From Octopus vulgaris (taxonomy: Eukaryota): DNA of 64,000 nt. A program made the translations under genes and the position numbers. Location of the stretch: assembly GCA_951406725.2 (NCBI GenBank), contig OX597832.1, positions 18,042,001-18,106,000 of the forward strand, given 5' to 3'. This document shows positions 50,022 to 50,688 of the stretch, piece after piece. The notes under the pieces were generated by a model, which saw only the letters and a list, made by a program, of their open reading frames with translations, was not told the DNA's origin and did not search any database. Within the stretch, counting starts at the first letter, position 1, and every line of letters starts with the position of its first letter.

Positions 50022-50022
<1 letters not shown>

Positions 50023-50213
50023 AATCAAAATAAGCAACAAGGATATCCAGAGGTAATGCAGTACAATCGTTTGATGCAACTTCATTTAATTTAACAATGC
50101 AATCATTACATCAATTTAAATTCATGTAATGATTGCATTGTTAAATTAACTAGAGTTGCATGAAACGATCGTACTGCATTACCTCTAGATATCCTTGTTG
50201 CTTACTTTGATTT
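50022..50213. repeat. 192 bp near-perfect palindrome (96 bp arms, no spacer)
   Basis: Manual ungapped comparison gives 8 mismatches in 96 bp; centre aattt|aaatt at 50117/50118. The right arm carries GAAA-CGATCG-TA. Confidence 0.92.
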
Positions 50214-50253
50214 TAACCACCCTACTTTGAAATTGTACGGATGATTTTCCTAC

Positions 50254-50319
<66 letters not shown>

Positions 50320-50416
50320 GGAGTAAACACATAAATGTGAAACAAGGTGGAAAAAAGAGTACTCAAATACCAGTGGTAGAGTAATATGCTTTATTTTAAG
50401 CTGCAGAAAATTCAAC

Positions 50417-50485
50417 AAAATTCTAGCAAAAACTGTCTGATGAACGGCAACGAGAAACTCAGAGTAACAGATTTTGCTGAATTTT
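50417..50485 (+). ncRNA. Type-I minimal hammerhead ribozyme (Penelope-like pLTR or retrozyme type) within a 50318-50505 insert in (TA)n
   Basis: Helix I 5' aaaattc-t-agcaaaa-a-ctgt; CTGATGA 50437-50443; stem II CG-GCAA-CG; GAAA 50454-50457; helix III ACTC-A-GAGT; GUA with predicted cleavage after 50466; helix I 3' acag-a-ttttgct-gaatttt. Confidence 0.8.
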
Positions 50486-50688
50486 CTGCTGCTTAAAATA
50501 AAGTATATATATATATATATATATATATTGGGTATGAAAATTACAGAAATAAAAATGTATGTGCCATATATTTTGAATTACTGCCGACTATAACTGCCCT
50601 TGCAGGCTGGATTTGAAAAATTATTACGTGTAAAGATGAGTCGTGTGCTGTCCGTTTTCCCCATAATTATACGTTAATTTTTAGCGCC

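Follow-up and report, generated by a model that had tools for sequence, protein, structure and literature searches.

The hammerhead motif

A stretch of 64,000 nucleotides of the Octopus vulgaris genome (assembly GCA_951406725.2, contig OX597832.1, positions 18,042,001 to 18,106,000 of the forward strand; referred to here as the window) carries at 50417-50485 a motif that was described, from the sequence alone, as a near-complete minimal hammerhead ribozyme. The locus raises the question whether this motif is a real RNA module, what kind of element brought it there, and how a copy of this form came to be inserted. The motif consists of the following parts (positions are those of the window):

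50420..50436, + strand: helix I, 5' strand, native part; its edge at -47 is the main 5' truncation edge of the family
50437..50443, + strand: core CUGAUGA; other subfamilies have C as its fourth letter (position 4)
50444..50453, + strand: stem II with A.A pair, 2 bp and GCAA loop; 50453 is A, G, U or C across subfamilies
50454..50466, + strand: GAAA, palindromic helix III (ACUC-A-GAGU) and triplet GUA; predicted cut after 50466
50467..50482, + strand: helix I, 3' strand, as placed by folding

A check of the sequence confirmed the position of the conserved core given in the preliminary description (CUGAUGA at 50437-50443, GAAA at 50454-50457 and GUA ending at 50466). Stem II, in which two pairs (CG/CG) lie between a basal A.A pair (50444/50453) and a GCAA loop, and the palindromic helix III (50457-50465) are likewise as described. 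For helix I the 18 possible pairs, interrupted by a mismatch (50432/50471) and a bulge (50423), could be reproduced, but three of them (50417-50419) are supplied by an inverted arm and the native upstream sequence differs there, so that the native helix I counts 15 pairs. Variants with a very short stem II may, reportedly, already be described by Lunse et al. (2017).

The bare core pattern is not significant by itself, with 5 matches against 8.2 expected in the 64-kb window. When the pairing of helices I and III is added, a single match is left in the same 64 kb, and Markov controls (n=40) gave a mean of 0.15 matches to this paired descriptor, or 0.0 at equal compactness. The hammerhead fold of the window has a z of -3.35. 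A degenerate 34-nt core pattern had 5,590 exact matches in the genome (2.8 Gb, 227 contigs) and its reversed control had 0; together with the paired-descriptor controls this rules out a chance match. The Rfam hammerhead models, put forward earlier as a check, did not match the window motif at E<=10, which we attribute to the limited coverage of the models; the match to the descriptor is complete. CUGANGA, GAAA and NUH follow each other in the order of a type I hammerhead with helices I-III, of which helix III is predicted to form only between two molecules. The earlier assignment to the type I minimal hammerheads with palindromic helix III, originating from a Penelope-like element (PLE), is supported by the identity of the pLTR with full-length copies (see below). 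Judged by its sequence, the window motif is a real hammerhead-type RNA motif, for which self-cutting is predicted.

Folding calculations agree with the dependence on a dimer that had been anticipated. The predicted probability of the active fold in the monomer is negligible (p=1.5e-6), the core pairing with helix III instead, and the two-strand MFE structure has the topology of a double hammerhead (-32.8 versus 2 x -15.3 kcal/mol, i.e. 2.2 kcal/mol lower). Both results fit the published dimer dependence and low activity (PMC4209133, PMC6765202; here and below, statements on published work refer to the accessible parts of the sources cited). The window hammerhead is thus predicted to reach its cutting shape only as a dimer.

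It had been suggested that the A.A mismatch at the base of stem II weakens the window copy. The exact window core, A.A included, makes up 3,490 of the 5,590 genomic matches and is found in 20 of the 22 ORF-start loci with a 5' hammerhead; it is therefore the majority form and not a defect specific to this copy. An unpaired N.N at this place is common among the published Hydra hammerheads (PMC8557442, File S2). Among 163 sampled arms that span the core, 112 have CUGAUGA with A.A and 39 carry a different combination of letters at positions 4, 7 and 11.1, while the pattern is unmatched in 12. The core is kept in 151 of the 163 arms, and helices I and III are complementary also in a second family. 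Copies of the family diverge too little from each other for covariation; against family 2 a compensatory change in helix I is seen.

Anatomy of the insert

The insert is embedded in (TA)n, as first noted. A natural full-length copy of the element (L241) was used as the reference for both arms:

50257..50317, no strand: (TA)n target, left, from the sequence; such flanks occur in 29/30 best copies
50318..50421, - strand: tailed arm, PLE 3' end from +4 to +107 relative to the cut; about 102/104 identical to L241, by eye
50420..50503, + strand: short arm, PLE 3' end from -47 to +37 with the whole hammerhead; 83/84 identical to the L241 pLTR
50504..50528, no strand: (TA)n target, right, from the sequence

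Comparison with such copies shows that 50318-50503 consists of two 3' ends of an autonomous Hydra-type PLE, both truncated at the 5' side and joined head to head; stubs of this kind number thousands in the genome. The two arms overlap by a 2-nt microhomology (50420-50421). The 70-nt tail (50318-50387) runs on, in full-length copies, into the 5' UTR and the ATG. The tail contains a small stem-loop (50362-50383, - strand) that looks similar, by eye, to the 3' terminus of Hydra-2_Amil as published; lying between the two start sites discussed below, it is a candidate signal for protein binding. Being a single stub that has no partner hammerhead in cis, the window copy is most likely inert.

The 3' strand of helix I can also pair with the upstream inverted arm, and this had been read as a possible on/off fold. 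The arm corresponds to +4 to +107 of the PLE end on the opposite strand; the supposed switch arm is therefore a second, inverted element end, and lies outside the element RNA. In the modelled read-through fold it would lengthen the outer helix, with a probability of 0.39 for the terminal pair of helix I and of 0.85-0.93 for the inner pairs. An insertion by-product that leaves the inner helix I closed is no switch, and this reading can be dismissed. The AG before helix I was also considered as a splice acceptor and rejected, as the arms contain the AG and there is no common upstream exon.

A second head-to-head insertion, of another repeat family, is found at 50022-50256 and shares the (TA)n tract with the hammerhead insert. 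Its 96-nt arms are 92% complementary, and one side is extended. This family has 737 candidates and displays a short-end/long-end pattern too. A hammerhead scan of 20 of its loci found none; one locus (L197) contains a Hydra-like nuclease fragment, the relation of which to the family is putative.

The parent element

Opposite-strand pairs 3-4 kb apart enclose an RT with a C-terminal nuclease, and the hammerhead is found ~1.05 kb behind the stop of the ORF. This ORF encodes ~710 aa, with the RT followed by a C-terminal GIY-YIG domain. In 22 of 30 ORF-start loci a hammerhead lies 174-176 nt before the ATG, 20 of them with the exact window core, and the tandem unit measures 3,430 bp. The pLTR-ORF-pLTR layout is that of a PLE. 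In a search with the N-terminus of a homologue, about 60 of the 150 matches listed (counted by eye) have open frames of at least 716 aa. One homologue that carries a species name comes from Argonauta hians. No remnant of the PLE ORF was found in the 64-kb window by tblastn, no Pfam family matched two partial ORFs, and a metagenome scan with the protein (P0001) yielded no related locus.

The element has the characteristics of the EN+ PLEs: a single ORF with RT and C-terminal GIY-YIG-type nuclease, the motifs of which match the published Hydra rows by eye, a pLTR arising from a partial tandem, an inverted 5'-truncated copy and a one-sided tail. The protein marks of Hydra (PMC8557442, section 11) are found as well, with RWK, DKT and the nuclease motifs CxxC and CxH present and CCHH absent. 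Insertion into (TA)n, again a Hydra characteristic, is seen in the best copies, 29 of 30 of which have (TA)n or TA-rich sequence on both sides. The Hydra linker CxCX5C is absent: it reads CxFX5C in the parent PLE, whereas CxCX5C is found in 109 of 120 homologues and in family 2. We therefore file the element as Hydra-type and not as a formal member of the Hydra clade. The second linker cysteine is a phenylalanine in every copy read, including the ORF of L241 (P0122). The CxFX5C family is young and still targets (TA)n, a point relevant to the idea of a linker-driven targeting of microsatellites. The unit exceeds the size of <3 kb that is given as a tendency for the Hydra clade (PMC8557442), because its 3' UTR is long.

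Insertion footprints in two families

In the window family (family 1) 236 arms were mapped, from the surroundings of almost every one of the 100 + 100 listed places on contig 1 (first ~100 Mb), the long arms against three natural references. The sample was anchored on near-exact 3' motifs and favours young copies, and the ends have an ambiguity of 1-6 nt from microhomology. Relative to the cut the 3' ends are fixed, at +107 for tailed and +37 for short arms, one per side; genome-wide there are 3,992 tailed and 4,085 short ends. The diverging pairs (n=87) comprise 82 tail+short, 2 tail+tail and 3 with an unclassified end, and none is short+short (52, 2 and 0 for the three defined types when the exact lists alone are used). 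Both arms share the subfamily letter in 87/87 pairs. A further 62 arms are unpaired.

The 5' ends pile up at -42 to -49, where 67 of the 140 arms at risk end (0.060/nt), as compared to 20 of 73 over -50 to -199 (0.002/nt). Only 11 of 225 arms end within 4 nt of the cut; this exceeds the far-upstream baseline of 3.7 (p=0.001) and is level with the neighbouring bins. The place where the stubs stop suggests that the RNA was likely copied uncut, and some use of cleaved RNA is compatible with the 11 ends near the cut. The two arms of a pair agree in length: in 64 pairs neither arm reaches beyond -49, in 19 both do, and 4 are mixed (p=4e-15). Of the long copies that cross the 5' hammerhead, 1/22 stops there. 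The junctions of the short pairs are diverse (52 distinct among 70), with an overlap in 45 of the 70 and seven pairs at -44/-44. In the directly joined pairs (n=54) the longer arm is the tailed one in 13 cases and the short one in 19, and the two are equal in 22.

The protein of family 2 is 44% identical to that of the window family, and its hammerhead combines an identical helix III with a long stem II, a C at position 4 of the core and a different but complementary helix I. From 2,510 anchor matches in the genome 98 arms were mapped. The diverging clusters are tail+short in 31 of 33 cases, with the tail end at +104 to +108 in 46/47 and the short end at about +34 to +40. At -59 to -66 there are 13/83 of the 5' ends and at -59 to -81 there are 21/83, compared to 2/86 at -42 to -49 and 1/95 at the cut; the peak is weaker (0.020/nt) and trails to -81. 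Family 2 repeats the footprint, and the pile-up shifts with the length of the ribozyme. Pyrimidine-A sites that we take to be initiator-like, a motif low in information, match the arm ends at -47 in family 1 and at -65 and -76 in family 2, but are given no weight as evidence here.

Head-to-tail arrays of family 2, with 4-5 units of about 2.58 kb, are present at one locus (L242, G000:C1:57209500-57219499), where the RT motif reads YKDD. Other hammerhead-like motifs, with a palindromic helix III (4-6 nt), a longer stem II and in some cases a U3-A8-type core, occur in the flanks of seven loci (L022, L030, L068, L142, L169, L170 and L175), pointing to several more PLE families in the genome.

Origin of the insert

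We consider it likely that the insert is a stub made of paired truncated 3' ends of a young autonomous PLE, formed by TPRT on both (TA)n strands, in which a hammerhead predicted to work only as a dimer was copied uncut. The nuclease of the element would cut both strands within (TA)n, after which one RT would start at +107 and the other at +37, one per target strand, on templates from one source copy. The template would be uncut (or re-ligated) RNA, and the two cDNA ends would be joined through microhomology. For another PLE it was found in vitro that both strands are nicked and extended, that two internal start sites define the tail and that uncleaved RNA is the main substrate (PMC11167929). 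An inverted truncated copy, a one-sided tail and a bias towards (TA)n are known from Hydra (PMC8557442).

The position of the pile-up calls for a further assumption. Short stubs may arise when the RT initiates in the 5' pLTR on transcripts starting near -47, at a pLTR-internal promoter, and long or tandem copies may come from read-through or re-ligated circular RNA; we regard this as about evenly balanced between right and wrong. PLE pLTRs hold an internal promoter (PMC2377424). With a transcript 5' end near -47 both cDNAs would run off the end of the RNA, and such an end agrees with the sharp edge at -47, with the matched arm lengths and with the absence of stops in long copies. A single promoter does not account for the full-length copies, only 1/22 of which ends near -47, so that another class of template has to be assumed. 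The paired arm lengths could also derive from joint termination of the two RTs.

The pile-up might instead be a structural stop: after both strands of helix I have been copied, RNA and cDNA would refold, or the partner RNA of the dimer would hold the 5' strand, and the RT would be released. In line with this, the peak follows the 5' edge of helix I in both families (-47, and about -62 in the extended helix of family 2), the cDNA is predicted to form a hairpin of -9.9 kcal/mol, and helix I is intermolecular in the modelled double hammerhead. The long cDNAs, however, pass the 5' hammerhead in 21/22 cases, the stop rate drops about tenfold just beyond -49 and mixed short/long pairs are restricted to 4/87, which makes this explanation possible but doubtful. 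Somewhat similar doubts apply to the idea that catalysis has been lost in the window family and that the hammerhead has been retained solely for a structural or promoter role. With 2 bp, stem II is shorter than in any Hydra-type motif of PMC8557442, File S2 (3-7 bp); subfamilies differ at positions 4 and 11.1, and a footprint of cut RNA is lacking. Nevertheless, the two families have retained the remaining core letters and the palindrome of helix III in spite of their protein divergence, helix I having changed on both strands, and another PLE is published in which hammerhead cleavage is assisted by the protein of the element and occurs only with it (PMC11167929). We thus judge a loss of catalysis unlikely.

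Two further explanations concern the mirror arm. It could have been produced by fold-back self-priming of one cDNA or antisense template (model in PMC3846280) instead of two priming events, as palindromic junctions do exist (the -44/-44 pairs and the overlaps mentioned above), the arms always belong to the same subfamily, and the junction in the window falls inside helix I. Fold-back from a short end cannot create a tail, however, and pairs in which the short arm is the longer one, the window copy included, are common among the 54 joined pairs; we therefore consider this origin rather improbable. Even less credible, in our view, is a non-autonomous, retrozyme-like element of 186 nt that spreads as a unit with the inverted arm as its switch, close to the non-coding PLE-derived element proposed in the preliminary description. 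Two junction types do recur among the 30 best matches, but these were chosen for their likeness to the window copy. The junctions differ between insertions (52 distinct in 70 short pairs), so the 186-bp unit has not spread as such; furthermore, there is a continuous gradation from the arms into the ORF, the insert lacks a tandem-repeat structure, and the inverted arm leaves the inner helix I in place. Paired truncated ends of an autonomous coding element, as set out above, remain the preferred origin of the insert.

Comparison with known systems

Hammerheads in PLEs have been published before, as have truncated copies in inverted orientation, tails on one side and the targeting of (TA)n. Reports of the truncation pile-up and the conserved start-site spacing were not found in a literature in which subscription journals were sparsely covered. 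The accessible main text of the Octopus vulgaris repeat annotation (PMC13282606) is without the words 'hammerhead', 'ribozyme' and 'Hydra'; its supplements, Repbase or Dfam may hold the family. The flagged motif is an expected feature of a known retrotransposon class, and its value is that of a test system, with thousands of young insertions, intact ORFs (dozens of them open) and a very small stem II. The footprints can be counted (strict tail+short pairing, fixed spacing in two families, truncation at the edge of helix I and not at the cut) and constrain the mechanism.

According to PMC8557442 and PMC11167929 it is unclear what PLE hammerheads do. We tentatively suggest that the Hydra-type PLE hammerhead might serve in integration, uncut, as a positioning and pairing module, by which two unrelated pLTRs would place their two RT start sites, one per target strand, some 37 and 105-107 nt past the cut, and that the thousands of solo hammerheads might be run-off copies of transcripts that start at the foot of helix I. 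If true, this would provide evidence, at the scale of a genome, on the function of PLE hammerheads and on why they litter animal genomes, and it would come from a young family whose dozens of open ORFs lend themselves to reconstitution.

The closest resemblance is to Hydra-2_aMil (Craig et al. 2021, PMC8557442, File S2), which shares the inner helix I CUGU/ACAG, CUGAUGA, ACUC-N-GAGU and the cut after A. The helix III ACUC-N-GAGU is found in five published Hydra families (same file), and the location near the 3' end, the (TA)n target and, in many members, the unpaired base of stem II are common to Hydra-clade hammerheads (PMC8557442). The window motif differs from the published Hydra motifs in a stem II of only 2 bp with a GNRA loop and a helix I of 15 pairs. 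A motif search of the accessible supplement of PMC8557442 gave no match to the window family, and identity with Hydra-1_Obim was rejected, since protein and hammerhead differ by eye.

The minimal hammerheads of metazoan PLEs (Cervera and De la Pena 2014, PMC4209133; review PMC6765202) are also of type I, with a palindromic helix III and dimer dependence, and occur in thousands of solo or opposite-strand copies from truncated elements. They usually have a long helix II, a short helix I and G10.1-C11.1, whereas the window motif is the reverse. The non-LTR retrozymes (bioRxiv 10.64898/2026.07.22.740005) share a short non-coding PLE-derived sequence and a type I hammerhead, yet they are head-to-tail tandem arrays. 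The window insert is no head-to-tail tandem of short hammerhead units but a head-to-head stub that is rebuilt at each insertion.

Finally, the Poseidon element PAc of the green anole (Frangieh et al. 2024, PMC11167929) shares the two internal RT start sites downstream of the hammerhead that define the tail, the extension of both target strands and the uncut RNA substrate. The tail is about 70 nt here and lies in the 5' UTR, whereas published tails measure 30-40 bp and that of PAc lies inside the ORF. Moreover, PAc in vitro makes no difference between the strands in its choice of start site, whereas the octopus insertions almost always have one site per side.
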